Positions 11,582 through 59,752 of a stretch of DNA of 64,000 nt are shown here, piece after piece; the stretch's first letter is position 1, and every line of letters begins with the position of its first letter. A program made the translations under genes and the position numbers. The stretch is from Candidatus Daviesbacteria bacterium (GTDB taxonomy: Bacteria > Patescibacteriota > Microgenomatia > Daviesbacterales > UBA10151), in the NCBI GenBank assembly GCA_016186955.1, contig JACPKP010000004.1:5942-69941 (forward strand). The letters run 5' to 3'. Below the pieces are notes generated by a model. That model saw nothing but the letters and a program-made list of their open reading frames with translations, did not search any database and had not been told where the DNA came from.

Positions 11582-12316
11582 CTACTGCGGCAAGTAAGTG
11601 ACCCTTCTCTCAACCTGGGAGGTATTCCCGACCAGGTTTGTTGCAACTACAGTAATGACATTATCACCTTCATTTATATCAACCGTTTTGGAAAAATTAC
11701 CATCGCCGTTTATGATTACCGTATTTCCGTTAATTGCCAGTGAGCTTGTTGCATCAGTTTTACCTGAAACACTGACTTTTTTATCTCCTCCCTGAATTTG
11801 TTGTCCGTCTGCAGGCTCGCTCAACTCAAGTTTTGGTTTTTCACTACTGTATAGTAGTTTAATTGTTTTAGAAGGGAGGCTTTTTTTACCATCTTCATTG
11901 ACCGTCAGGCCGTAAATGTTATTTGTACCCAGTGACAAAGGAATAGCATCCGATTGAAAGCTACCGTTCTCCCCAGCTGTTGTTTCATTTTTTAATTCAT
12001 TATCAATATATATTTCAACTTTATACTTTGGTGTTGAGTAACCGGAAATTTTAATTGTAGCGCTGTTTGTAGCATCAAAGGGGATATTTAAAACAGGCGG
12101 GGCGATAACTGTCTCTTCGGATACGGAGTTTACCTTTGTGCTGGGTTTAAATTTATTAAAGAAAGATAATCCTCCGATTAAGGCCGGCAGCCCCCAAGTT
12201 GCCATAAAGTAAATCAGGCTGAATATAACAATCACACTAAGTAGAATATTCCTTCTGCTTTTTTTCTCTAGCCTTCTGATAGATCTTGGTTGGTAAGTAG
12301 ATCTGTAGCGCTGCAT
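11582..12316 (-). CDS. hypothetical membrane-anchored secreted protein
   Basis: Basic N-terminus followed by one TM helix. The remainder is T/S/N/G-rich and beta-rich. Confidence 0.5.
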   Translation of the reverse strand: MQRYRSTYQPRSIRRLEKKSRRNILLSVIVIFSLIYFMATWGLPALIGGLSFFNKFKPSTKVNSVSEETVIAPPVLNIPFDATNSATIKISGYSTPKYKVEIYIDNELKNETTAGENGSFQSDAIPLSLGTNNIYGLTVNEDGKKSLPSKTIKLLYSSEKPKLELSEPADGQQIQGGDKKVSVSGKTDATSSLAINGNTVIINGDGNFSKTVDINEGDNVITVVATNLVGNTSQVERRVTYLPQ

Positions 12317-12340
12317 ATTTAGATTATATCAAGTTTTGGG

Positions 12341-12412
12341 AGCCGATGGACGGAATCGGACCGTCACTCTTACGCTTACGAAGCGTCTGCTTTACCATTA
12401 AGCTACATCGGC
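12341..12412 (-). tRNA. tRNA-Thr (anticodon CGT)
   Basis: Reverse complement gives GCCGATG-TA-GCTT-AATGGTA-AAGC-A-GACGC-TTCGTAA-GCGTA-AGAGT-GACGG-TCCGATT-CCGTC-CATCGGC-T. There is a G27/A43 mismatch and an unusual T-loop TCCGATT. Confidence 0.65.
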
Positions 12413-12482: not shown

Positions 12483-13160
12483 ATGCTTAAAAAATTGAAT
12501 TACCTGGTAGCCTCTCTTTTACCCTCAAAAATCTACTGGTACTGGGCTGGTTTAATTCACCCCTGGCAGGCTGTCTTGGAGGATGCTTCTATGCCAGAAG
12601 AGGTTTATAACAGGGGAGTGGAGTTTGTTGCTATTTTAACAACCTTAAAGTTGATCAATAAAAACAGTAGGCTGCTTGATATCGGTTGTGGGGTGGGTAG
12701 GATGGAGTATGCTTTATGCAGAAAGGTTCAAAGTTGTACAGGCGTCGATATATCTGCATCAATGGTTCGTTTGGCCAAAAGATATGTTAACCAAAATAAT
12801 GTGTGTTTTGCAGTTACTAATGGAAAAGATTTAAAGGTTTTTAAAAACAATAATTTTAATTTGGTGATATCTATACTTGTGTTTCAGCATGTACCCAGGA
12901 AAATTTTTACAAATTACTTGAAAGAAAGTTTTAGAGTTTTAGATTATAAGGGTAAGTTATTTTTTCAGATACCAACAGATGAGTCAGGAGTACAAAAAGA
13001 TCCTGCAAAAAACCATCCATGGGCTTTGCGTTACTACCAGACTGAAAAACTCCAAAAAACGTTGGGAAAGATAGGATTTAAGCGTATTAATTTTTTTAAT
13101 ACAAAGGGATTAAAATTCAAAAAACAGGATAACCAGGCTCTGGTTCTGGCTGTAAAATAG
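12483..13160 (+). CDS. class I SAM-dependent methyltransferase
   Basis: Motif I LLDIGCGVGRMEYAL and motif II-like NLVISILVFQHV. Confidence 0.7.
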   Translation: MLKKLNYLVASLLPSKIYWYWAGLIHPWQAVLEDASMPEEVYNRGVEFVAILTTLKLINKNSRLLDIGCGVGRMEYALCRKVQSCTGVDISASMVRLAKRYVNQNNVCFAVTNGKDLKVFKNNNFNLVISILVFQHVPRKIFTNYLKESFRVLDYKGKLFFQIPTDESGVQKDPAKNHPWALRYYQTEKLQKTLGKIGFKRINFFNTKGLKFKKQDNQALVLAVK

Positions 13161-13301
13161 TGGTGGGACAGCATTTCTGACCTAGAACTAAAGAAACAAG
13201 AAATACTTCCTTTACAGTTCTATTATAACGATATTGACCTTAAAATTCTTCATTTTGCTTCTAGTAATAACAATTTTCTACAAAGTCTAGCTAATTAGCC
13301 T

Positions 13302-13901
13302 ATGGATATAAGAAAAGAAGTGATACAAACATTTGAAGAAGAATTTATTCAACAACACGTTTCTGATAGCGTGTACCGTAGTATCGTAAAAGAACTATCT
13401 GGTGCGAAAGACCCAAAAAGGCGTGGTAGGAAGATAGAATTAACCGCCGAAAAACTCCATAACTTTTTGTTTTATCTATCCCTCGGCCATACGTACAAGG
13501 ATTCGGCTATTTACGCACATATCCCAGAAAATACCAGGCAAAAGTATATGGCTAGTTCTGAAACATTTCAGCGGGTAGCTAGCCTTGCAAAGGACAATTT
13601 AACAATGCAAGCGCGATTAGCCTTGGCGTTTGCTATAGAGGGGTGTAAGCCATGCTACCGTGCCTTTATGCACCCTGTAACAAAAGAAGCAATTTATATA
13701 CTCGTGTCAGAACGACAACCAAATGTTCGTGCCGCAATGTGGTATTTAGACCAAATAAAATACTTTGAAAAATTAAGTGAAAAAAGGGGTGATTCACAAC
13801 AACTTGGCGCACCAAGAAATGAAGAAGAAGCTAGTTTGCTAGAAGAACTTCTAAATAGACATTACGATTACGTAAGAAGCAAAGAACAGGAAGATAAATA
13901 A
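13302..13901 (+). CDS. hypothetical protein (island cargo)
   Basis: 199-aa ORF with no recognisable motif. G+C is visibly higher than in the surrounding core sequence. Confidence 0.5.
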   Translation: MDIRKEVIQTFEEEFIQQHVSDSVYRSIVKELSGAKDPKRRGRKIELTAEKLHNFLFYLSLGHTYKDSAIYAHIPENTRQKYMASSETFQRVASLAKDNLTMQARLALAFAIEGCKPCYRAFMHPVTKEAIYILVSERQPNVRAAMWYLDQIKYFEKLSEKRGDSQQLGAPRNEEEASLLEELLNRHYDYVRSKEQEDK

Positions 13902-13925
13902 CCCAATATCAGATATAATTCCACT

Positions 13926-14426
13926 ATGCTTTATATATTAACAGGGCTTCCATATTCAGGAAAAACAACTTTAACTAAAGAACTAGTAAATCGTTTTGGG
14001 TTTATAAAAGTTTCTATGGACGACGTTATAGACGAAAAAGGCCTTGAAGTCGAAGATATGTCGCAAGAAGATTGGAATACCGTTTATTCAGAAGGGTATG
14101 AGAAGCTAAAAACACTGCTGGAAGAAGGCGAGACGGTAGTTTTAGACCTTGGTAATCTTAAAAGAAGCGAACGACAAACAGCTAGAAATATAGCAGAAAG
14201 TTTAGGTAAAAAGTTCAAAGTTATCTATCTTAATGTTCCATTAGAGGAAATCAAAAGACGGTGGGAAGTTAACGAAAAAACACAAGAACGGGGTCAGCTT
14301 GAAGAAGTAACACTTAAACGGGCATTAGATATGTTTCAAAAACCGACCGAAGACGAAGAATATATTACCTACAATCAACAAATGGATTTAGATAAGTGGA
14401 TTGAAGAAAATATAAAGTCTTCTTAA
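13926..14426 (+). CDS. P-loop kinase (AAA_33/polynucleotide-kinase-like)
   Basis: Walker A ILTGLPYSGKTTL near the N-terminus. Small (166 aa) kinase-only fold. Confidence 0.6.
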   Translation: MLYILTGLPYSGKTTLTKELVNRFGFIKVSMDDVIDEKGLEVEDMSQEDWNTVYSEGYEKLKTLLEEGETVVLDLGNLKRSERQTARNIAESLGKKFKVIYLNVPLEEIKRRWEVNEKTQERGQLEEVTLKRALDMFQKPTEDEEYITYNQQMDLDKWIEENIKSS

Positions 14427-15433
14427 ATAATCGTAATTATTGAAGGCGTTTGTCCTAAAAATCCTATTTGAAACTTTTCTATCTTCTTATTTGGGAAAAA
14501 TGCCTTAGCGTGTTTAATTAGCAAATCTGGTTTGGATACTAGCAGGCATAATCTTCCGTCTGGTTTTAGAATACGGGCATATTCTGATAGCGAACCGACG
14601 TATAAATCTGTAACGCTTTTAATTTCAATTTGTTTGTCCCATGGCAAATTAGATACAGCGAAATCGAACTGCTTATCCTTCCATGGTGCTTTTAGGGCGT
14701 CTAACCTTTTAATCTTGCTTTCTGTTTTACACCCCAAATTAGATAAGTTCTGTAGAGTAGCCTCGACTGCCATATTTTCGATATCGCCACCAAAAATATC
14801 ATTACCTGCAAGATACGCTTCGGCAAGTATCGTTCCACTACCACAGAAATTATCTACGACTATACCTTTATCGCCCAACGTCGCGAGTTTAACCATGGAG
14901 TTAGCAATACTAGGTCTTAGACCGCCCTTAGAAGAAACGGTGCGGTAACTCCTATGAAATAATGGCTTCTCAGTGAGACGCACTGAAACATAGAGTTCTT
15001 TATTGTCTATAAAAACACGAATATCAAAATTAGAATGGTCGAGTTCTGTATATTCCCAGTTATAGTCTTCACCAATAACCTTACTTAGAGAACTTTGAAG
15101 TTCTTCTACCTTAATTTTTGTTTTCGCAAGGCTAAAAGTAACAGAAAAAGTATTGTTAACTTTTCGGTACTGTTCTATTTGTTCCTTTGCAGATTTAAGG
15201 TTAATATCTCTAAAAATGTTTAGAACGTCCTCTACCCTGGATATTTCACCCGTAGCAAGTAACAAGCAAATATCATCAACAGTTTTTAGGTCAGTTAACA
15301 CTTTACTATATTTAGTTTCGAAGACAATTCGTTTAGGTTTTAGGTCGACAAAGTTTACTTCACGAACCAAGTTTTGAATTTCTTGCTTCGCAACTTCCTC
15401 TAATCCTTTTACTGTGTACGCTATTATTTTCAT
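14423..15433 (-). CDS. THUMP-domain class I SAM-dependent (RNA m2G/N6-A type) methyltransferase
   Basis: Motif I VVDNFCGSGTILAEA and motif IV NLPWD (amino-methyltransferase (D/N)PP(Y/W) box). The N-terminal ~150 aa are THUMP-like. Confidence 0.55.
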   Translation of the reverse strand: MKIIAYTVKGLEEVAKQEIQNLVREVNFVDLKPKRIVFETKYSKVLTDLKTVDDICLLLATGEISRVEDVLNIFRDINLKSAKEQIEQYRKVNNTFSVTFSLAKTKIKVEELQSSLSKVIGEDYNWEYTELDHSNFDIRVFIDNKELYVSVRLTEKPLFHRSYRTVSSKGGLRPSIANSMVKLATLGDKGIVVDNFCGSGTILAEAYLAGNDIFGGDIENMAVEATLQNLSNLGCKTESKIKRLDALKAPWKDKQFDFAVSNLPWDKQIEIKSVTDLYVGSLSEYARILKPDGRLCLLVSKPDLLIKHAKAFFPNKKIEKFQIGFLGQTPSIITII

Positions 15434-15443
15434 ATTATGTTTT

Positions 15444-16259
15444 CTAAATGGCTTGACGCCTAAAGTCTAAGTATAAAGCTACAAACTTTGGCCTAGGCAT
15501 TCCATTCTTAACGTCGCGCTTTTCTTCTTTTTCCACTTTCTTTGATTCTGAACTTAAAGTTTTTTTGTCAAAATCATAGTTAATAAGCATACCTTCTTTA
15601 AGATATTTCGATAACTTCTTTTCTTCTGATTCTCTAATCGCCACCTTACACATACTTAATAGGTTTAAGGTCTTTTTATCTACTAAGTCGCATTGGTATT
15701 TTAAGTAATTAAGCATTTCTAAATAAACACCTATCTTACTAAAGTCGATTTTGCCTTGCTTGTGGTCTTCGATAATTTGGTTCACTACACCATTTGTATA
15801 TTGAAAATCCGAGTTAAGGGATTCAACCATTGAATATGCTTCGGCATATTCGTTAATAAGGTCTAAATTAAGAAGTTTCAGACTAAGTCCGGTACTTATT
15901 GAAATGTTATAAAAGCGTAGTATTATTCGGATATTATTGTCATTTGTATTTTGCAGAGCATCTTCAACAGACGCGATATTTCTTGACATATTTACTCTAA
16001 CGGGAATTAATTCGTGTTCGATTTGTACTACTGTATTTCTGTGGTCGAAATATTTATCACGCCGTAGCTGGTTTATCCTTCTTCGTGATTCAAAGTAATT
16101 GGAAAATAAGGCGGCGAAGAATCCCCCTAGAAAAGCGGATAATACTATTTGAAAGGTATTATCTTGTAACAGATTTCCTATGGACGAAGGAATACTGGTA
16201 ATAAATAAAACTGCACTATTTGAAGCGATATTATTCATAATTAATTCTTTTGCCGTCAA
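15444..16259 (-). CDS. hypothetical membrane protein (island cargo)
   Basis: Two N-terminal TM helices (ITSIPSSIGNLL..., IVLSAFLGGFFAALF). No motif recognised. Confidence 0.45.
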   Translation of the reverse strand: MTAKELIMNNIASNSAVLFITSIPSSIGNLLQDNTFQIVLSAFLGGFFAALFSNYFESRRRINQLRRDKYFDHRNTVVQIEHELIPVRVNMSRNIASVEDALQNTNDNNIRIILRFYNISISTGLSLKLLNLDLINEYAEAYSMVESLNSDFQYTNGVVNQIIEDHKQGKIDFSKIGVYLEMLNYLKYQCDLVDKKTLNLLSMCKVAIRESEEKKLSKYLKEGMLINYDFDKKTLSSESKKVEKEEKRDVKNGMPRPKFVALYLDFRRQAI

Positions 16260-16443
16260 TAATCTTTTGAATGTCTTCTAGTTTGTATCGTCTGTCTTGA
16301 CGCTTGCCAATCCGTATAGCTTTTAGGCGACCTTCATTATCCCAACGTCGCAATGTTTGGGGATTAACACTTAATAGTTCGGCCGCTTCTTTAATTCGTA
16401 AAAGCTTTATTTTACCAGTCATAACTTGTACTAAATTATACAT
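16231..16443 (-). CDS. MerR/excisionase-type HTH DNA-binding protein (Xis-like)
   Basis: IKEAAELLSVNPQTLRRWDNEGRLKAIRIG matches the MerR-type/excisionase HTH pattern. 70 aa, adjacent to the recombinase. Confidence 0.55.
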   Translation of the reverse strand: MYNLVQVMTGKIKLLRIKEAAELLSVNPQTLRRWDNEGRLKAIRIGKRQDRRYKLEDIQKIIDGKRINYE

Positions 16444-16469
16444 TTTTTAGTTATAATGTGTAAGTATCT

Positions 16470-16868
16470 ATGAAGAAAAGAAATAAGAAATACGAGCTTC
16501 CCGACTTTGCAGACGATATATTCATGCCTGACGATTTAATGAAGGTTCTTGTGGAACGTAATGGGTGTAAATACTTCTGGGGTATACCTTACAGAATTTA
16601 TAAATCTAGTCGATTTCAGAACATGGAAGAACTTTATAAAGACGAAGACTTAGAGGCACTAGGCGGGGTTTTGTTAGATATTCTCGTAGTTAATAAGTAT
16701 TCAATCGACTTCAAACAAAAAACGGGCGTACAGAAGCTACAAGTGGTCGTGCGGTCATCGGAAAGCGAAGATAAACAACTACTTCATAAGTTGGCTACTG
16801 GGATTCGAGCAAACGATAAACCATTGAATAGAGATAGCATTCCAGGAACTAATAACGACAATGAATAA
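16470..16868 (+). CDS. hypothetical protein
   Basis: 132-aa ORF immediately upstream of, and overlapping, the recombinase gene. Confidence 0.4.
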   Translation: MKKRNKKYELPDFADDIFMPDDLMKVLVERNGCKYFWGIPYRIYKSSRFQNMEELYKDEDLEALGGVLLDILVVNKYSIDFKQKTGVQKLQVVVRSSESEDKQLLHKLATGIRANDKPLNRDSIPGTNNDNE

Positions 16869-18598
16869 ACAACAAACCGTACCACTTCGAGCCGCAGTTT
16901 ACCTTCGTGTATCTACGGACGACCAGATAGAAAAATACGGCATACCTTTACAGAAGGCCGCCGTTGACGCGGTAGTTAATTCTAAGGGAAAACTAGACGA
17001 CGGTTCACCAGCTATGGTACTGGCTGGCGAACCGTACATTTATAAAGACGAAGGGATTAGTGGCACAACACCACTAGAAGAACGACCAGGTTTCGTACTA
17101 TTGAAGGAAGATATTGAAAACGCGCCAGGTGGCGCAAAACCCTTCGATATTGTGGCCGTTTATCGTATCGACAGATTCGCCCGAAAACTAAAAATTCTTT
17201 TAGAAGTAATTGACTACTTCGAGGCACATGATATCCAGTTCATTTCGGCTAACGAAAGCATAGATACTTCTACACCGTTTGGTAAGGCCATGCTCGGTAT
17301 TATTGGTGTGATAGCTGAACTCGAACGGGAAACGACCAAAGCCAGAACACAGGCGGGTAAAGAACAAGCTATCGAACGCGGTGTCTACATGGGTGCAAGT
17401 GCGCGATACGGTTACATTAAGAATAAAGATAAGCGTCTTGAAATCTTCCCACCAGAAGCCGACGTAGTTCGTAACATTTTCGAAATGTTTGTGGTCGAAA
17501 AAAGAAACACGCAGCAAATTGCTGACCGTCTTACAGATAAAAAAATTCTTACCCCATTACCTTCTGCACTTCATTATGGGAAAAGAACAACTGGCAAAAC
17601 AAAGGTTAATGACCTTTATTTCTGGCGGGGTTCCACAGTTAGAGATATTGTAAAAGACGAAGTATATCTGGGAATCTATTACTACAATAAAAACCAAGGA
17701 AGCAAACGCCTAGATAGGTCTTTATGGAAGGAATCACCTTTACTTACTGTCTGGCCTATTAAAATGCCACGCTTGCTACGACGCCAATTCTGACCGCGAC
17801 CCGCTAAACTGGACGGGTACGAGTAAAGTTATAAAGAAAAACAACAAGCGTGTGTATTATTACCAATGCGGCGCAAAAAATACCAAAAAATACTCGACTG
17901 TCTGTAAAGCTATACCCTTCCCAGCGGACGAAATCGAACAATTTGTAACAGGCTTTGTAAAAGACCTTCTAAGCGACCCTGAAAGTGTCTATAACCATGT
18001 TAATTCCCTTCAATCGACTAAGGCTAAGAAACGACAGCTAGAGAAAAAACAGTCCGAATTAACAAAGCTATTTAATGAACTTCCGCGCCGACGTCAAAAT
18101 ATACAGCGAATGTATAAACGCGGCGACATTGGCGACAGTGAATACGACAAAGAAATGGAAGGTATAAAGGCTAAAGAAGTTGAATATAAGACAGATTTAG
18201 GGGCAATACAATTACAAATCGGCGAAAGTAAATTGTCAGATATTTATGCTCGCACACTTAAATTGTTTGCTAAGAAGTACAAACCATTCTTAGACGGCCT
18301 AATGACTGACAGACAAGAAGTATCAGAACTGATACACCTAATAGTCGATAGAATCCATGTCTACACACGTAAGGCGACTAAAAACGACAAAATAGCGGGT
18401 CGTAAGAAGGAAGACCAGGTCATCCCGTACCAAGTGAGGATAGACTTACGCTTACCACAAGACATGATGAAGCGGTTCTCCCAACAAGGGAAGTTCGAAG
18501 TCAAAAATGCTGAATTGAGCGGGAGACGGGATTCGAACCCGCGGCCTTCTCCTTGGGAAGGAGACATACTACCACTATACTACTCCCGCAATAAATAA
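16861..18598 (+). CDS. large serine recombinase, apparently frameshifted (two ORFs: 16861..17793 frame 1; frame 2 open 17714..18598)
   Basis: N-terminal AAVYLRVSTDDQ catalytic-serine motif and the resolvase/recombinase domains lie in ORF1. The zinc ribbon (LKCHACYDAN...YYYQCGAK) and coiled coil lie in frame 2, which is already open from 17714. The 3' end reads through tRNA-Gly on the opposite strand. Confidence 0.75.
18518..18589 (-). tRNA. tRNA-Gly (anticodon CCC)
   Basis: Reverse complement gives GCGGGAG-TA-GTAT-AGTGGTA-GTAT-G-TCTCC-TTCCCAA-GGAGA-AGGCC-GCGGG-TTCGAAT-CCCGT-CTCCCGC-T. Confidence 0.85.
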
Positions 18599-19191: not shown

Positions 19192-19479
19192 TTAACGAAG
19201 GGTATAAGCCAAATCATTCCACTCATCGTTGAATTGATTAATCAATTTATCTTTTTTAAATCTTGTCCAACCCTTTATTCTCTTTTCTCCAGCTATTGCT
19301 TGATTCACATCAGAAAACTCTTCATAGTAAACAAGTTTATTTAAGTTATATTTTTCAGTATATCCATAAATTAATTTACGTTTATGTTCCAATACTCTTC
19401 GTTCTAAGTCATTAGTGATACCAACGTAAAGCATTTTGTTATTCTTTGTTGTGAGTATATAAACATAATAACTCTTCAT
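19192..19479 (-). CDS. GIY-YIG nuclease family protein (small, COG2827-like)
   Basis: YVYILTTKNNKMLYVGITNDLERRVLEHK carries the GIY...YIG and R...E motifs. 95 aa. Confidence 0.8.
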   Translation of the reverse strand: MKSYYVYILTTKNNKMLYVGITNDLERRVLEHKRKLIYGYTEKYNLNKLVYYEEFSDVNQAIAGEKRIKGWTRFKKDKLINQFNDEWNDLAYTLR

Positions 19480-20189: not shown

Positions 20190-20264
20190 TTTTTAGATCC
20201 TTGGTTGGCAGACTCAACTGAGTCATATTTAACCCATTTTTAGAACATTGTCAAGAGGGCAATT

Positions 20265-20700
20265 TTGCAAAAGTTTAGCGCCCTCATGGTTTTCCACTGT
20301 TTAGTGGCCTACCCGAGGGCGCTTAAAGCTATGCACCTGATATTGCGGAATAAAAGATGTAGCTTGCCTGCCACTAGGCAGGTGTTAGTTCTTGTTCTTT
20401 TGGAGCATAGTCTCCGCAGGATACCCCTGCGAGCTCATGCTCCAACTTGTCCTGCTCGGCAAGCCAACGCAACCAGCGCAAATGAGCTGGGTTCGGCTCG
20501 CGGGGGGGCACGGAAAACATCTGCAGCTCTGCGTCGTATCTGTTCATTTCCTCCTCCAGAATCCGTTCGTGACTCCGCTAAATCAAGGTGCACCCGGGTT
20601 TCCCCGGAAATACAAAGGAAACAAAGCCCAGGTTGCAATCAGCCCACCCTTGTTTCTAATGTAATACGTATTATATCAGAATATGTCAAGAAACACAAAC
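20265..20700. other. G+C-rich ORF-free segment; candidate structured non-coding RNA (identity unresolved)
   Basis: Strikingly G+C-rich relative to its flanks. Only arginine-rich junk ORFs appear in all frames. Several strong hairpins are present (e.g. GGAGCAT...CCGCAGG-ATACC-CCTGCG...ATGCTCC and GCCTGCC-ACTA-GGCAGG). Confidence 0.3.
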
Positions 20701-20764
20701 TATAGGATTTTAGTTTTACATTGCGTTGAAAGAAAAGGGTGGAATTGTTACAATACTACCACTT

Positions 20765-20840: not shown

Positions 20841-21104
20841 ATGGGAATAGTTTATATTTTAAGATCGTTAGTAAACGGAAGGTTTTACATTGGGTCGACG
20901 AATGATTTAGAAAGGAGATTTGGAGAACATAATTTAGGAAAATCAAAAGCGACAAAATTTACAGCGCCGTTTGAATTAGTCTTTAGACAGGAATATGATT
21001 CGTTAAACAAAGCCAGACGAGTTGAAAATAAGTTAAAAAAATTTAAGAGCAAGATAATTTTAGAAAAGATAATAAATGATAGTTTTATAACTTTGGGACC
21101 GTAG
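20841..21104 (+). CDS. GIY-YIG nuclease family protein (small, COG2827-like)
   Basis: IVYILRSLVNGRFYIGSTNDLERRFGEH. 87 aa. The stop codon TAG lies inside the 5' acceptor/D region of tRNA-Asp. Confidence 0.8.
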   Translation: MGIVYILRSLVNGRFYIGSTNDLERRFGEHNLGKSKATKFTAPFELVFRQEYDSLNKARRVENKLKKFKSKIILEKIINDSFITLGP

Positions 21105-21291: not shown

Positions 21292-21579
21292 TTAATAATC
21301 TTCAACTGTTCTTATTCTTCCATCAGCTCTATGTATATATACGGATGTACCTTGGTTTTGAGCAATTGATTTAGCTCGATCTATAGCTGCCTTTTGAGTT
21401 TTAAAAATATCACTTGCTCTTTCTGCTCCACCACGAATTACTACCCATGAATTATCTTTATGTATAACATGGTGGTTTTGTTTACCTCTCTCGACAGCTT
21501 GTTTATAAGCCCTTATCTGAGGATTATTTTGATTTGTCTTATATATAACTTTTTTCATATTAAAATTTAGACTGAACAA
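21292..21579 (-). CDS. DUF2188-like small protein
   Basis: HVIHKDNSWVVIRGGAERASDIFKTQKAAIDRAKSIAQNQGTSVYIHRADGRIR matches the DUF2188 pattern W.V...GA.RAS..F.TQ.EAI..A..IA.NQ...L.IH..DG.IR. Confidence 0.5.
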   Translation of the reverse strand: MFSLNFNMKKVIYKTNQNNPQIRAYKQAVERGKQNHHVIHKDNSWVVIRGGAERASDIFKTQKAAIDRAKSIAQNQGTSVYIHRADGRIRTVEDY

Positions 21580-22162
21580 ATGAAATTATATCATTTTCTG
21601 ACATTTGAATTTTATTTAAATAAGCAATGAATTCTGTTCTGTTCCCAAATTCAATCTTGGCAAACTGCATTGTTTGGTTCTCCGTATAAGAACTTTCTAC
21701 AATGTTTATTGCTATTTGAGGATATTTTAGAGTAATCCACAATAACGTTTTTCTAGCACCAGAATGAGTTTTGTAAAAGTGAGAATCTTTAAATTTTCTA
21801 TCACGACTTAAAAAAGCAATAAATGCTCTTTTAAGATCATCAGGTATAATAGCATAAATGATAGGCTTTTTCTTTAATTTAAAAACTTCATTTAATTTAA
21901 TTCTTGCACCTTCCTCTGTAGAAAGCGTTGCATCAAATACAATACTTTTTTTACGGCTTAGTTGTGATGATAAAAACTCTGTTTTTCCAGATGCTGCGCC
22001 ACCATTTAAGAAGATTATGTTGTTGAACTTATGCTTTTTTAATTCTTCATAAAACAACTTATCTGCTTGTTTTGCTGACGCTGTATGGAATAACTCAGCC
22101 TTCTTGGGTAAATAACCAAACATAGTTTTCTTGATTTCATCTGCTGAAATGATAACGACCAT
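21560..22162 (-). CDS. zeta-toxin-like P-loop kinase
   Basis: Walker A NGGAASGKTEF within a zeta-toxin-like layout. 200 aa. Its 3' end overlaps the DUF2188 gene by 20 nt. Confidence 0.5.
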   Translation of the reverse strand: MVVIISADEIKKTMFGYLPKKAELFHTASAKQADKLFYEELKKHKFNNIIFLNGGAASGKTEFLSSQLSRKKSIVFDATLSTEEGARIKLNEVFKLKKKPIIYAIIPDDLKRAFIAFLSRDRKFKDSHFYKTHSGARKTLLWITLKYPQIAINIVESSYTENQTMQFAKIEFGNRTEFIAYLNKIQMSENDIISFVQSKF

Positions 22163-59562: not shown

Positions 59563-59680
59563 TAATATGCCCTCGCTTCACTCGAGCGAACAACTACCCA
59601 CTATCGTGGTGGCGCAGATCGAATCCTCAAACAGATCAAAAAATTCAAAATGACGGCATGGAGCCGTAATTTTGAATTTG

Positions 59681-59752
59681 TGACCCGACTCGGATTCGAA
59701 CCGAGGACCAAAAGCTTAAAAGGCTTCTGCTCTACCGCTGAGCTATCGGGCC
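59681..59752 (-). tRNA. tRNA-Lys (anticodon TTT)
   Basis: Reverse complement gives GGCCCGA-TA-GCTC-AGCGGTA-GAGC-A-GAAGC-CTTTTAA-GCTTT-TGGTC-CTCGG-TTCGAAT-CCGAG-TCGGGTC-A. Confidence 0.85.

Follow-up and report, generated by a model that had tools for sequence, protein, structure and literature searches.

How did a P-loop kinase gene and a methyltransferase gene come to lie inside a compact block that abuts a tRNA gene in a bacterium of the Candidate Phyla Radiation (CPR), and is that block mobile? The question is posed by a locus within a 64,000-nucleotide (nt) stretch of DNA, hereafter the window, from Candidatus Daviesbacteria, a member of the CPR (the 336-amino acid (aa) methyltransferase of the locus is 100% identical to the NCBI protein so named). 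An initial annotation, made from the letters alone, had proposed an element integrated at tRNA-Gly(CCC), with limits of 13302-18598 and with the kinase and a THUMP methyltransferase inside it as cargo. We find that the element and its cargo stand and that the limits do not: the element spans 13161..18517 (5.36 kb) and is very probably an immobilised copy of a family of small CPR integrative elements. It is seated immediately after the discriminator base of the tRNA, with the 3'-end of the recombinase gene facing the 3'-end of the tRNA. CPR mobile DNA is little known and this family counts at least 322 recombinases; furthermore, scarless insertion after the discriminator base of several tRNAs is an unusual target logic for the large serine recombinases, which are valued as genome-engineering tools.

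The backbone of the element runs, in order, from a putative detached tail of the recombinase gene through p199, the cargo, HTH_17 and p132 to the large serine recombinase. The features of the locus are:

13161..13298, plus strand: left end of the element, or 'tail'; 45 sense codons (TGG at 13161 and 44 from 13164) without a start codon, ending in a TAG stop at 13296-13298
13302..13901, plus strand: p199, a backbone gene with a weak small-terminase-like helix-turn-helix (HTH)
13926..14426, plus strand: P-loop kinase, cargo; 166 aa (Pfam AAA_33 E 9e-19, KTI12 E 1e-11)
14423..15433, minus strand: THUMP-type S-adenosylmethionine (SAM)-dependent methyltransferase, cargo; 336 aa (Pfam UPF0020, PF01170, E 2e-21, 77 bits), with an NLPWD motif
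15444..16259, minus strand: p271, in the variable slot; N-terminus with hydrophobic helices, as judged by eye
16231..16443, minus strand: HTH_17, a 70-aa excisionase/MerR-type HTH protein (Pfam HTH_17 E 1e-11), divergent from p132 and the recombinase
16470..16868, plus strand: p132, a backbone gene whose stop overlaps the recombinase start by 8 nt; no family match in Pfam, PHROG or NCBIfam
16861..17731, plus strand: large serine recombinase pseudogene, 5' part (Pfam Resolvase, PF00239, E 3.3e-32, residues 11-175; YLRVSTDDQ; truncated Recombinase domain)
17732..18517, plus strand, +1 frame: recombinase pseudogene, 3' part (Zn_ribbon_recom, PF13408, E 7e-6; zinc ribbon and coiled-coil region)
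18515..18519, no strand: right junction core, TTGAG in the window and TTGTG in relatives
18518..18589 (alternative start 18517), minus strand: tRNA-Gly(CCC), intact and native, the integration target, outside the element (ARAGORN, and Rfam at 69.4 bits)

The open reading frames (ORFs) of the initial annotation all recur at their coordinates, and its AAA_33-type P-loop protein and MerR/Xis-like HTH are borne out by the Pfam matches above, as is the tRNA-Gly(CCC) on the opposite strand, on which ARAGORN and Rfam agree. The two ORFs that it had called unknown (13302..13901 and 15444..16259) indeed have no Pfam match, and the kinase and methyltransferase genes do converge with a 4-nt overlap.

The limits of the element are defined by comparison of three copies, that of the window and those in two loci here called L005 and L082. 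On the right, similarity ends with ...AA(C/T)TTG, directly before the complement of the tRNA discriminator; beyond this point only generic T-arm matches are seen, and the acceptor stems are those of three different tRNAs. On the left, similarity begins at the same nucleotide in all three, at (T)GTGGGACAGCATTTCTGAC (window 13161-13164), and the flanks are unrelated. The left neighbour in the window is a resident 225-aa methyltransferase gene (12483..13160), the stop codon of which (13158-13160) lies directly before the element. Sequence comparison showed the acceptor stem of tRNA-Gly to be unlike those of the tRNAs beside other copies, so the tRNA was not imported by the element. The initial annotation had taken the same genes in the same place in related genomes as the sign of an immobile block; what we find is a block with the same ends at tRNA-Lys(CTT) in L005 and at tRNA-Glu(TTC) in L082/L148, between unrelated flanks. 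The block is thus mobile and not a fixed locus, because the same genes sit at different places in relatives.

Including the window, seven elements share this geometry, with the 3'-end of the recombinase gene abutting the discriminator base of an antisense tRNA. The tRNAs occupied are Gly-CCC, Lys-CTT (twice), Glu-TTC (twice), Val-CAC and Glu-CTC, at least five tRNA species. The six relatives are:

L005 (= L013, GCA_964535655.1), tRNA-Lys(CTT): recombinase intact, 599 aa; methyltransferase 85% identical to that of the window
L082 (= L148/L149/L150), tRNA-Glu(TTC): metagenome contig with the gene order of the window; recombinase 588 aa
L147, tRNA-Val(CAC): recombinase identity 81%
L151-154 (Amesbacteria), tRNA-Glu(CTC): recombinase identity 77%
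L158, tRNA-Glu(TTC): recombinase identity 63%
L155-157, tRNA-Lys(CTT): recombinase identity 49%

The L148 sequence comes from ERZ27249449 (JGI 3300014208) and L150 from SRR6484324; GCA_001773775.1 and GCA_020049755.1 are further genomes from samples with intact copies. More widely, the recombinase has at least 322 CPR-type relatives at E <= 1e-30. Of the 120 closest, 37 have C-termini that translate an antisense tRNA T-arm, in one or another of the three frames (RDSNP, WELNP, GFEPW, GIRTHD), and in another 70 the stop falls no more than about three residues from the junction. Serine integrases of cultured phages share 28% identity or less with the recombinase, and its relatives in IMG/VR, where neither the element family nor its end motifs were found, are only 23-26% identical; a search of the full-text literature on mobile elements and integrases returned no description of this family.

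The initial annotation had described the arrangement as the classic one in which integration rebuilds the 3'-end of a tRNA, which is the pattern of tyrosine integrases. This description does not apply: the tRNA is wholly native, only about 5 nt are shared between the ends, and a blastn-short search with tRNA-Gly against the window found no tRNA-derived repeat at the far end, only the T-arms of other tRNAs. The same search with the tRNA-Lys of L005 likewise gave no repeat at the distal end, and direct repeats of the tRNA 3'-end were rejected as att sites, there being none in either locus. The junctions share a small core and no long direct repeat, as the short att sites of a serine integrase would, and a search with Pfam found only serine recombinase domains, and no tyrosine recombinase, in the element. 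Base composition proved no guide to origin. The cargo had been described as visibly G+C-richer than its flanks, yet its G+C content is 0.355, that of the whole element 0.376 and that of the window 0.377 on average; only the left flank is unusual, being A+T-rich at 0.323, and 58% of all 5.36-kb windows have a G+C content at or above that of the element. We therefore rejected G+C content as a mark of foreign origin. Breaks of Logan contigs inside tRNA-Gly (18537-18565) were considered as an empty-site variant and rejected, as the runs in question also yield contigs broken in tRNA-Asp and at arbitrary positions. Exact-match look-ups of two flanking proteins returned the same population only; the runs of the window population are SRR12113420-30.

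We read the tail (WWDSISDLELKKQEILPLQFYY...) as the putative detached 3'-end of the recombinase gene. In six of the seven elements, that of the window included, the far end starts at the same nucleotide with some 45 start-less codons, and the homology of the window tail with L005, L082/L148, L147 and L151 begins at this nucleotide beside unrelated upstream flanks. No start codon is conserved in the tail frame across the left-terminal 135 nt or so, and the encoded residues are 76-86% identical between elements. Between the window and L082 the proportions of synonymous (pS) and non-synonymous (pN) differences are 0.77 and 0.19 in one frame, a ratio of 0.24; in the other two frames, which contain stops, the pN/pS ratios are 1.1-1.3.

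The junctions are consistent with this reading. The recombinase frame reads ...AAT GMT RAM TTG up to the right junction and the tail frame TGG GAC AGC from the left one, the two being in phase in all five elements in which the junctions were read. Both junctions of L147, L148 and L151 share a 5-6-nt core, TTGTG(G), and TTGTG also stands at the right junction of L155 and L158; when the ends of the first three are joined through this core the product reads ...N-L-W-D-S-I-S-D..., in frame. The core is composed of three trailer nucleotides and the complements of tRNA positions 73 and 72. From these sequences it is likely that integration splits the integrase gene; only about 5 nt (TTGTG) are common to both junctions. 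A real ORF has the same geometry: in L005 the tail supplies the last 46 codons of a second, neighbouring recombinase (635 aa, 41% identical) lying directly against the element on its left, an arrangement suggestive of two related elements in tandem.

On excision as a circle, the element would join its right end to its left in frame, such that the integrase gene would span attP, with an expected junction of ...GAAGTCAGAAATGATAACTTGTGGGACAGCATTTCTGAC..., and encode about 634 aa; for L148, a full-length integrase of 588 + 47 = 635 aa is predicted, and the empty attB would read ...CCGAAAAACAGTTTGTGACCTTACCGGGAATCGAACCC. The acceptor and T-arms of the tRNA with the T-rich trailer are the likely attB, which would explain the use of many tRNAs. 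Integration would cut off the last 45 or so codons of the integrase, the gene then ending at the junction or reading into the antisense tRNA. The integrated gene does stop at the junction (TTG TGA) in the tRNA-Glu sites and is prolonged into the antisense tRNA by 12 codons in L005 and by 26 in the window. The circle would also bring p132, the recombinase with its tail, p199 and the kinase together on one strand, with overlaps or gaps of no more than 24 nt, as one transcription unit, and HTH_17, the variable gene and the methyltransferase would form a divergent unit on the other. The two units diverge from a 26-nt spacer (16444-16469) and meet at the 4-nt overlap of kinase and methyltransferase. 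Judging by this gene order, integration would separate p199 and the kinase from their promoter.

The copy in the window is no longer able to follow such a cycle. Its recombinase is destroyed by a deletion, and the copy is an immobilised remnant. The initial annotation had seen a single large serine recombinase gene here: the domains are indeed present, but they lie in two ORFs in different frames, 16861..17793 and 17852..18598. Against three intact homologues (L147, L005 and L151), 107 nt are missing at 17731/17732, a loss of about 36 codons of the Recombinase domain together with a frameshift; the deletion is flanked by imperfect AATCNCC repeats. Beyond it, the 5' frame runs to a stop at 17791-17793, and the Recombinase domain (PF07508) is matched at model positions 3-73 of 102 only. 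The 3' part, which is 80-83% identical to the intact homologues, ends with ...KFEVKNAEL and TTG at 18515-18517, from where the open frame continues by chance through the antisense tRNA to 18598. The ORF thus does end across the tRNA, as had been annotated, but only since its own last 45 or so codons have been removed, and the gene is dead. The deletion is not an assembly error, because two independent assemblies from other runs carry the identical recombinase sequence. The resolvase catalytic domain with its catalytic serine, by which a large serine recombinase is recognised, is present in the window; the Recombinase domain and zinc beta-ribbon stand together in one intact ORF in the relatives, where the recombinases are intact at 588-599 aa, and not in the window.

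Three small genes of the backbone, HTH_17, p132 and p199, are, by position only, candidate recombination accessory factors. HTH_17 scores 32.8 bits against a cut-off of 28.8 for the TIGR01764 'excise' model and keeps its position in all seven elements but L158, for which no HTH_17 match is on record. Directly upstream of the recombinase, p132 is found in L005 (71% identity), L147 (89%), L148 (67%), L151 (65%) and L158 (43%). In five elements p199 directly follows the tail (60-93% identity); its family is narrow, with 29 representative clusters among 1.8 billion proteins. The profile and structure searches proposed for 13302..13901 in the initial annotation yielded a weak HTH of small-terminase type and no significant fold match. 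Without a Pfam match itself, p199 matches phrog_4102 'terminase small subunit' (E 6.6e-5) over residues 39-88, the HTH only, and one member of the family matches Pfam Sf6_terminase at E 5.6e-4. Its model (pLDDT, the predicted local distance difference test score, of 78) resembles Sf6 gp1 only locally (69 columns, probability 0.7-0.87, E > 0.3), no fold match reaching E < 0.29. It is probably a DNA-binding protein; it may assist recombination or, should the element be a phage satellite, take part in packaging.

The variable slot is occupied in the window by p271, for which Pfam, PHROG, NCBIfam and PADLOC give no match, and in L005, L148 and L151 by an unrelated 490-494-aa DUF8370/DUF8371 protein, which in L005 matches the PADLOC candidate PDC-M36A at E 1.6e-21. 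PADLOC matched neither p199, p132 nor the kinase, and the methyltransferase matches its generic methyltransferase models only. Two supposed paralogies were rejected for lack of any similarity, one between p271 and the 494-aa slot protein of L005 and the other between p199 or p132 and a 205-aa protein beside the second recombinase of L005.

The kinase and methyltransferase are exchangeable cargo, one of several alternatives, and are found in three elements. L005 has the same gene order as the window (recombinase, a 131-aa protein, HTH_17, variable gene, methyltransferase, kinase, a 199-aa protein). In L147 and L151 the left end (tail, then p199) and the right backbone (HTH_17, p132, recombinase) recur with other cargo between them, namely a 2-hydroxyacid dehydrogenase, a glyoxalase, an OLD-like ATPase and a hydrolase in L147 and HIT, histidine phosphatase, Ldh_2 and DUF8370/8371 proteins in L151, while the cargo of L155-157 is a type I restriction-modification (R-M) system. 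The p132 and recombinase of the window are closest to those of L147 (89% and 87%), and its p199, kinase and methyltransferase to those of L005 (93%, 93% and 85%). At synonymous sites the three elements diverge by 0.64-0.77 in the recombinase but by only 0.18-0.29 in the kinase and 0.16-0.44 in the methyltransferase, and the cargo genes are under purifying selection (dN/dS 0.09-0.23). By these sequence comparisons, the kinase-methyltransferase cassette moves between related elements, which have a mosaic structure.

The methyltransferase belongs, on its sequence, to the Trm14/TrmN/RlmL (UPF0020) THUMP group. It had been annotated as a THUMP-domain NLPWD methyltransferase, of which the UPF0020 domain and the NLPWD motif are secure and the THUMP domain (PF02926) falls just under the Pfam cut-off (19.1 against 20.6 bits). 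The N-terminal 214 residues nonetheless align to positions 1-217 of the Trm14_Arch model and to 13-223 of the structure 3ldu. In NCBIfam the protein lies below every curated equivalog cut-off, with 99.8 bits for Trm14_Arch (cut-off 280), 77.8 for Trm14_Thcoccales (480) and 93.4 for EmtA (625). Profile matches in the Protein Data Bank (PDB) are to 3ldu (2.5e-27), Trm14 (3tlj, 8e-22) and TrmN (3tma, 1.7e-13). The motifs DNFCGSGT and SNLPW are invariant in 15 orthologues; full-length orthologues with 36-57% identity occur in CPR and DPANN genomes, those of DPANN at 36-43%, and source annotations name the relatives tRNA(guanine6-N2)-methyltransferase.

The kinase is closest to the kinase domain of the archaeal O-phosphoseryl-tRNA(Sec) kinase (PSTK), as judged from sequence profiles and a structural model. 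The best PDB match of the family profile is the PSTK of M. jannaschii (3adb, E 4.4e-10), which covers the whole kinase domain (profile positions 1-152); the next classes are orders of magnitude weaker, with T4 Pnk at E 3e-3. In the fold search with the model (pLDDT 92.6), the highest template modelling score (TM-score), 0.76, is to PSTK, with the folds of gluconokinase, PNKP and adenylate kinase close behind; the E-value does not separate these four, and it is the TM-score and the sequence that favour PSTK. Invariant in the family are the Walker A motif GLPYSGKTT and the residues D32, D74, R83, R112 and R122. The NCBIfam PSTK model (TIGR03574) gives 43.9 bits, 15% of its cut-off of 290.5, and the C-terminal tRNA-binding domain of PSTK and Kti12 is missing, the protein ending at residue 166. 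Other matches are phrog_505 'polynucleotide kinase' (E 7e-13) and, weakly and in Pfam, chloramphenicol phosphotransferase (E 0.008). The family is small and confined to the CPR, with 81 clusters of 159-183 aa that are 42-93% identical.

Linkage of the two cargo genes is always convergent where it occurs, and it is rare: the kinase is beside the methyltransferase in three of about 27 species-representative methyltransferase loci, plus one Woesebacteria genome, and the methyltransferase is beside the kinase in five of 43 kinase loci. The same convergent pair also occurs at ordinary chromosomal sites in other CPR genomes. The neighbours of the kinase in the 43 loci include a small unknown protein (8), Ham1 (7), the THUMP methyltransferase (5) and Xth, with no Sec or Elp genes. 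The commonest of them, a protein of about 170-183 aa without a Pfam match (loci L091, L093, L094, L097, L098, L103, L106 and L118), has SAM-methyltransferase-like motifs by eye (DVAGGQG, VVDPR, GLHPDQAT).

Taken together, these observations allow us to propose, tentatively and at somewhat less than an even chance, an undescribed, CPR-wide family of minimal serine-integrase elements that would use generic tRNA 3'-ends as attB, would have an integrase gene spanning attP and would shuttle a cassette of two tRNA acceptor-end enzymes between hosts. The full-length integrase would exist only in the circle, and the integrated copy would be truncated or scrambled at its C-terminus; this truncation would act as a built-in sensor of the integration state, could set directionality and would switch the expression of p199 and the kinase. 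Several points weigh against our account of the element as a whole. No excised circle, attP junction or empty attB has been seen, and the attP and tail patterns were unmatched in IMG/VR; nor does the tail occur in any of the 120 nearest recombinases. The window lacks the consensus core at either junction, having TGG on the left, TTGAG on the right and a U73 discriminator, and the crossover dinucleotide cannot be placed, as more than one placement suits the intact elements and each would leave one mismatch in the window. The left junction of L005 is with a second element, so tandem arrangements also occur. Genes for replication, transfer or packaging were not found. As to the cargo, the methyltransferase and kinase orthologues are mostly chromosomal and mostly unlinked, and in the metagenome-assembled genome (MAG) of L005, the sole one checked, the copy in the element is the only methyltransferase orthologue found; for these reasons the cargo may act as an ordinary housekeeping gene.

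Might only HTH_17, p132 and the recombinase be mobile, with the kinase, methyltransferase and p199 as resident chromosomal genes beside a landing site? Methyltransferase orthologues do stand in ordinary contexts without a recombinase, one of them (78% identical) adjoining QueF, Vut_1 and TGT, the Woesebacteria pair likewise has no recombinase, a recombinase is found only in L013 among 66 species-representative loci, and the composition is not foreign. The far boundary, however, lies 140 nt upstream of p199 at the same nucleotide in three genomes with unrelated flanks, with the kinase and methyltransferase inside it, and the same tail and p199 close off the far end of L147 and L151, in which other genes stand in for the kinase and methyltransferase; the resident-gene explanation is extremely unlikely. 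A different view of p199, that it is small-terminase-like and redirects the packaging of a helper phage, would make the element a minimal phage satellite, and satellite status would explain transfer without transfer genes. The PHROG match of p199, the Sf6_terminase match in its family and the local likeness of its model to Sf6 gp1 fit this, and the 5-10 kb size with an integrase and an excisionase-like HTH recalls minimal satellites, such as the PICI/PICMI-type islands. The terminase signals nevertheless cover only the HTH of some 50-70 residues and fall below the family thresholds, the fold search gave nothing at E < 0.29, elements and end motifs are missing from IMG/VR, and no helper phage, cos or pac site is on record; we regard a satellite as unlikely. 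The tail, finally, might not be the end of an integrase but a regulatory segment adjacent to att, or a small ORF translated independently, seeing that no contig or protein was found that fuses a recombinase to the tail of its own element and that TGG stands in place of TTG ahead of the tail in the window and L005. Against this stand substitutions that are codon-periodic in one frame only, the want of a conserved start codon in that frame, a tail in phase with the recombinase in 5/5 elements, and the recombinase ORF of L005 that reads into the tail with a length, 635 aa, equal to the 588 + 47 predicted for L148, so that a tail unrelated to the integrase seems improbable to us.

For the cargo, we consider that it may combine N2-guanine methylation of the tRNA acceptor stem with a tRNA-directed kinase or ATPase, an assignment to which we give slightly less than half of our confidence. 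The initial annotation had instead been reminded of Pnkp/Hen1-like RNA end-healing and modification, that is, a repair or immunity module. Both proteins do fall in RNA-directed families, the kinase shares its fold with polynucleotide kinases (mammalian PNKP, T4 Pnk and the phrog_505 match), the convergent pair recurs in several CPR lineages and sister elements carry defence genes. Yet the three elements lack any ligase, phosphoesterase or Hen1-type 2'-O-methyltransferase, the methyltransferase being of the N2-guanine THUMP type; the genes converge and form no operon, PSTK (E 4e-10) is a far closer fit to the kinase profile than T4 Pnk is, and the adjacency is as rare as described above. We now hold the repair reading to be very unlikely. 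Ribosome protection is the other alternative, with an EmtA-like rRNA guanine methyltransferase and a small-molecule (antibiotic or sugar) P-loop kinase as resistance cargo. It draws on the end-to-end alignment of the methyltransferase with the EmtA model (5-310 against 5-307, of 336 aa, 93 bits), on an rRNA adenine dimethylase at the Erm/KsgA border that the L148 element adds, and on the kinase model, for which the lowest Foldseek E-value is to a sugar kinase, followed by gluconokinases, besides the weak chloramphenicol phosphotransferase match. However, the EmtA score is 15% of its cut-off and the Trm14 score 36% of its own, full-length orthologues (36-43%) occur in DPANN archaeal genomes and the relatives are named tRNA(guanine6-N2)-methyltransferase, a close orthologue lies beside the queuosine tRNA-modification genes QueF and TGT, and the best match of the kinase by sequence and TM-score is PSTK. 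Resistance cargo is accordingly a doubtful proposition, of small probability.

The known systems that the element resembles help to place it. With the serine-integrase elements (the phiC31, Bxb1, A118 and SPbeta prophages and the Ccr recombinases of SCCmec) it shares the domain order of resolvase, recombinase domain and zinc ribbon, the NCBIfam matches of the window recombinase being CcrB, XisF and CcrC, and also the short shared core without a long att repeat and the small Xis-like HTH nearby. It differs from the serine integrases of cultured phages in its low identity (<=28%) and its targets, which are the extreme 3'-ends of several tRNA genes and not one protein-coding or unique site; in an integrase ORF that appears to span attP; and in a size of 5-10 kb or little more, without phage or conjugation genes. 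Like the tyrosine-integrase tRNA islands (P4-like, SaPI-like, AICE), it has its integrase beside a tRNA 3'-end, a variable cargo that includes defence genes and decayed remnants that appear to pile up at the site (L158); unlike them it uses a serine recombinase, has no duplicated tRNA 3' segment at the far end and has at most two tRNA nucleotides in its core.

The archaeal integrase gene of the SSV1 type is reportedly partitioned by integration into a tRNA gene, as She et al. are said to have described in 2001. The inferred cycle of the present element is similar in that attP would lie inside the integrase ORF, integration would break the gene and the full length would exist only when excised. 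The SSV1 enzyme, however, is said to be an archaeal-virus tyrosine recombinase split near the middle of its gene, whereas here a bacterial serine recombinase would lose only its last 45 or so codons and keep all known domains.

Of the cargo enzymes, the methyltransferase resembles the tRNA m2G6 methyltransferases Trm14 (archaea) and TrmN (Thermus), and also RlmL and EmtA, in having a probable N-terminal THUMP-type module and a UPF0020 methyltransferase domain with an NLPW like the N/D-P-P-aromatic motif; in contrast to Trm14 and TrmN it scores far below the curated equivalog cut-offs and its gene is carried on a mobile element. The kinase shares with PSTK and Kti12 (PMC6511879, PMC2275090) the sequence and fold of the kinase domain, the Walker A motif, the catalytic Asp and the lid arginines, and differs from PSTK in its length of 166 aa, in having no C-terminal tRNA-binding domain and in being bacterial (CPR); there are no selenocysteine or Elongator genes around it. 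As in Pnkp-Hen1 bacterial RNA repair, a kinase gene adjoins an RNA methyltransferase gene, but phosphoesterase and ligase domains are absent, the methyltransferase is of the THUMP N2-guanine and not the Hen1 2'-O type, and the genes are convergent with a linkage that is not conserved.

What sets the family apart is apparently its targeting of tRNA ends, an integrase ORF that seems to cross attP and the exchange of RNA-modification and defence cassettes. If it is true that integration swaps the C-terminus of the integrase, this would be a simple way to control directionality. Exchangeable cassettes can carry RNA-modification genes from one reduced genome to another, the examples here being a Trm14-like methyltransferase, a PSTK-like kinase and an Erm/KsgA-like enzyme of one relative, and such exchange may explain the patchy distribution of these genes. 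The message of the copy in the window is more modest, that of a fixed remnant with cargo genes under purifying selection.

A number of further observations concern the relatives. The extra rRNA adenine dimethylase of L148 (8700-9587, = L082 5565-6452) lies between HTH_17 and p132 and is on the border of the Erm and KsgA models, with 211.7 bits against a cut-off of 212 for Erm and 169.8 against 171 for ksgA. Two quite different family members occupy the same chromosomal site in L005 (5947-6135) and L155-157 (about 11776-12390), where tRNA-Lys(CTT) stands beside tRNA-Arg(TCG) near genes for SBP_bac_5, holin, UvrC and transglutaminase. This hot spot holds the kinase-methyltransferase element in one genome and the type I R-M element in the other. 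The second recombinase of L005 (12137-14044, onward to about 15100) is accompanied by its own 205-aa protein and an HTH_3 repressor-like gene and is arranged head-to-tail with respect to the left end of the element; ThsB_TIR and DUF433/DUF5615 genes lie beyond it, and a second tail that would delimit this neighbouring element was not found in the 21 kb examined. In L158, two tail-like segments (2974-3078 and 4358-4451), the second interrupted, lie upstream of one recombinase, which suggests that element remnants have accreted at one tRNA-Glu site. The records L013, L015, L018, L021, L027 and L029 are titled 'uncultured Gammaproteobacteria bacterium', labels that look wrong for CPR-type MAG contigs, among them the contig with the element's best relative.

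Elsewhere in the window, tRNA-Lys(TTT) (59680-59752) ends ...A73 followed by CAAAT and so presents the consensus core (CACAA in the RNA sense), unoccupied. Only tRNAs were found by Rfam in the window. A region of about 480 nt (20240-20720), placed between a LysM gene and a GIY-YIG ORF with tRNA-Asp, has a G+C content of 0.44-0.48 against 0.377 for the genome, contains ORFs without a protein family and gives no Rfam match at E <= 0.1. Both of its strands fold far better than shuffled controls (z -6.6 and -6.1), and it may be a structured RNA that has escaped annotation. This region and tRNA-Asp are flanked by two small stand-alone GIY-YIG ORFs (19192-19479, minus strand, and 20841-21104, plus strand) with matches to the N-terminal part of group I intron endonucleases (E 3e-5 and 3e-7). 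Finally, at 21292-22162 on the minus strand, a 200-aa P-loop-like protein without a family match overlaps a 95-aa DUF2188 protein by 20 nt, and the two may form a two-gene module.

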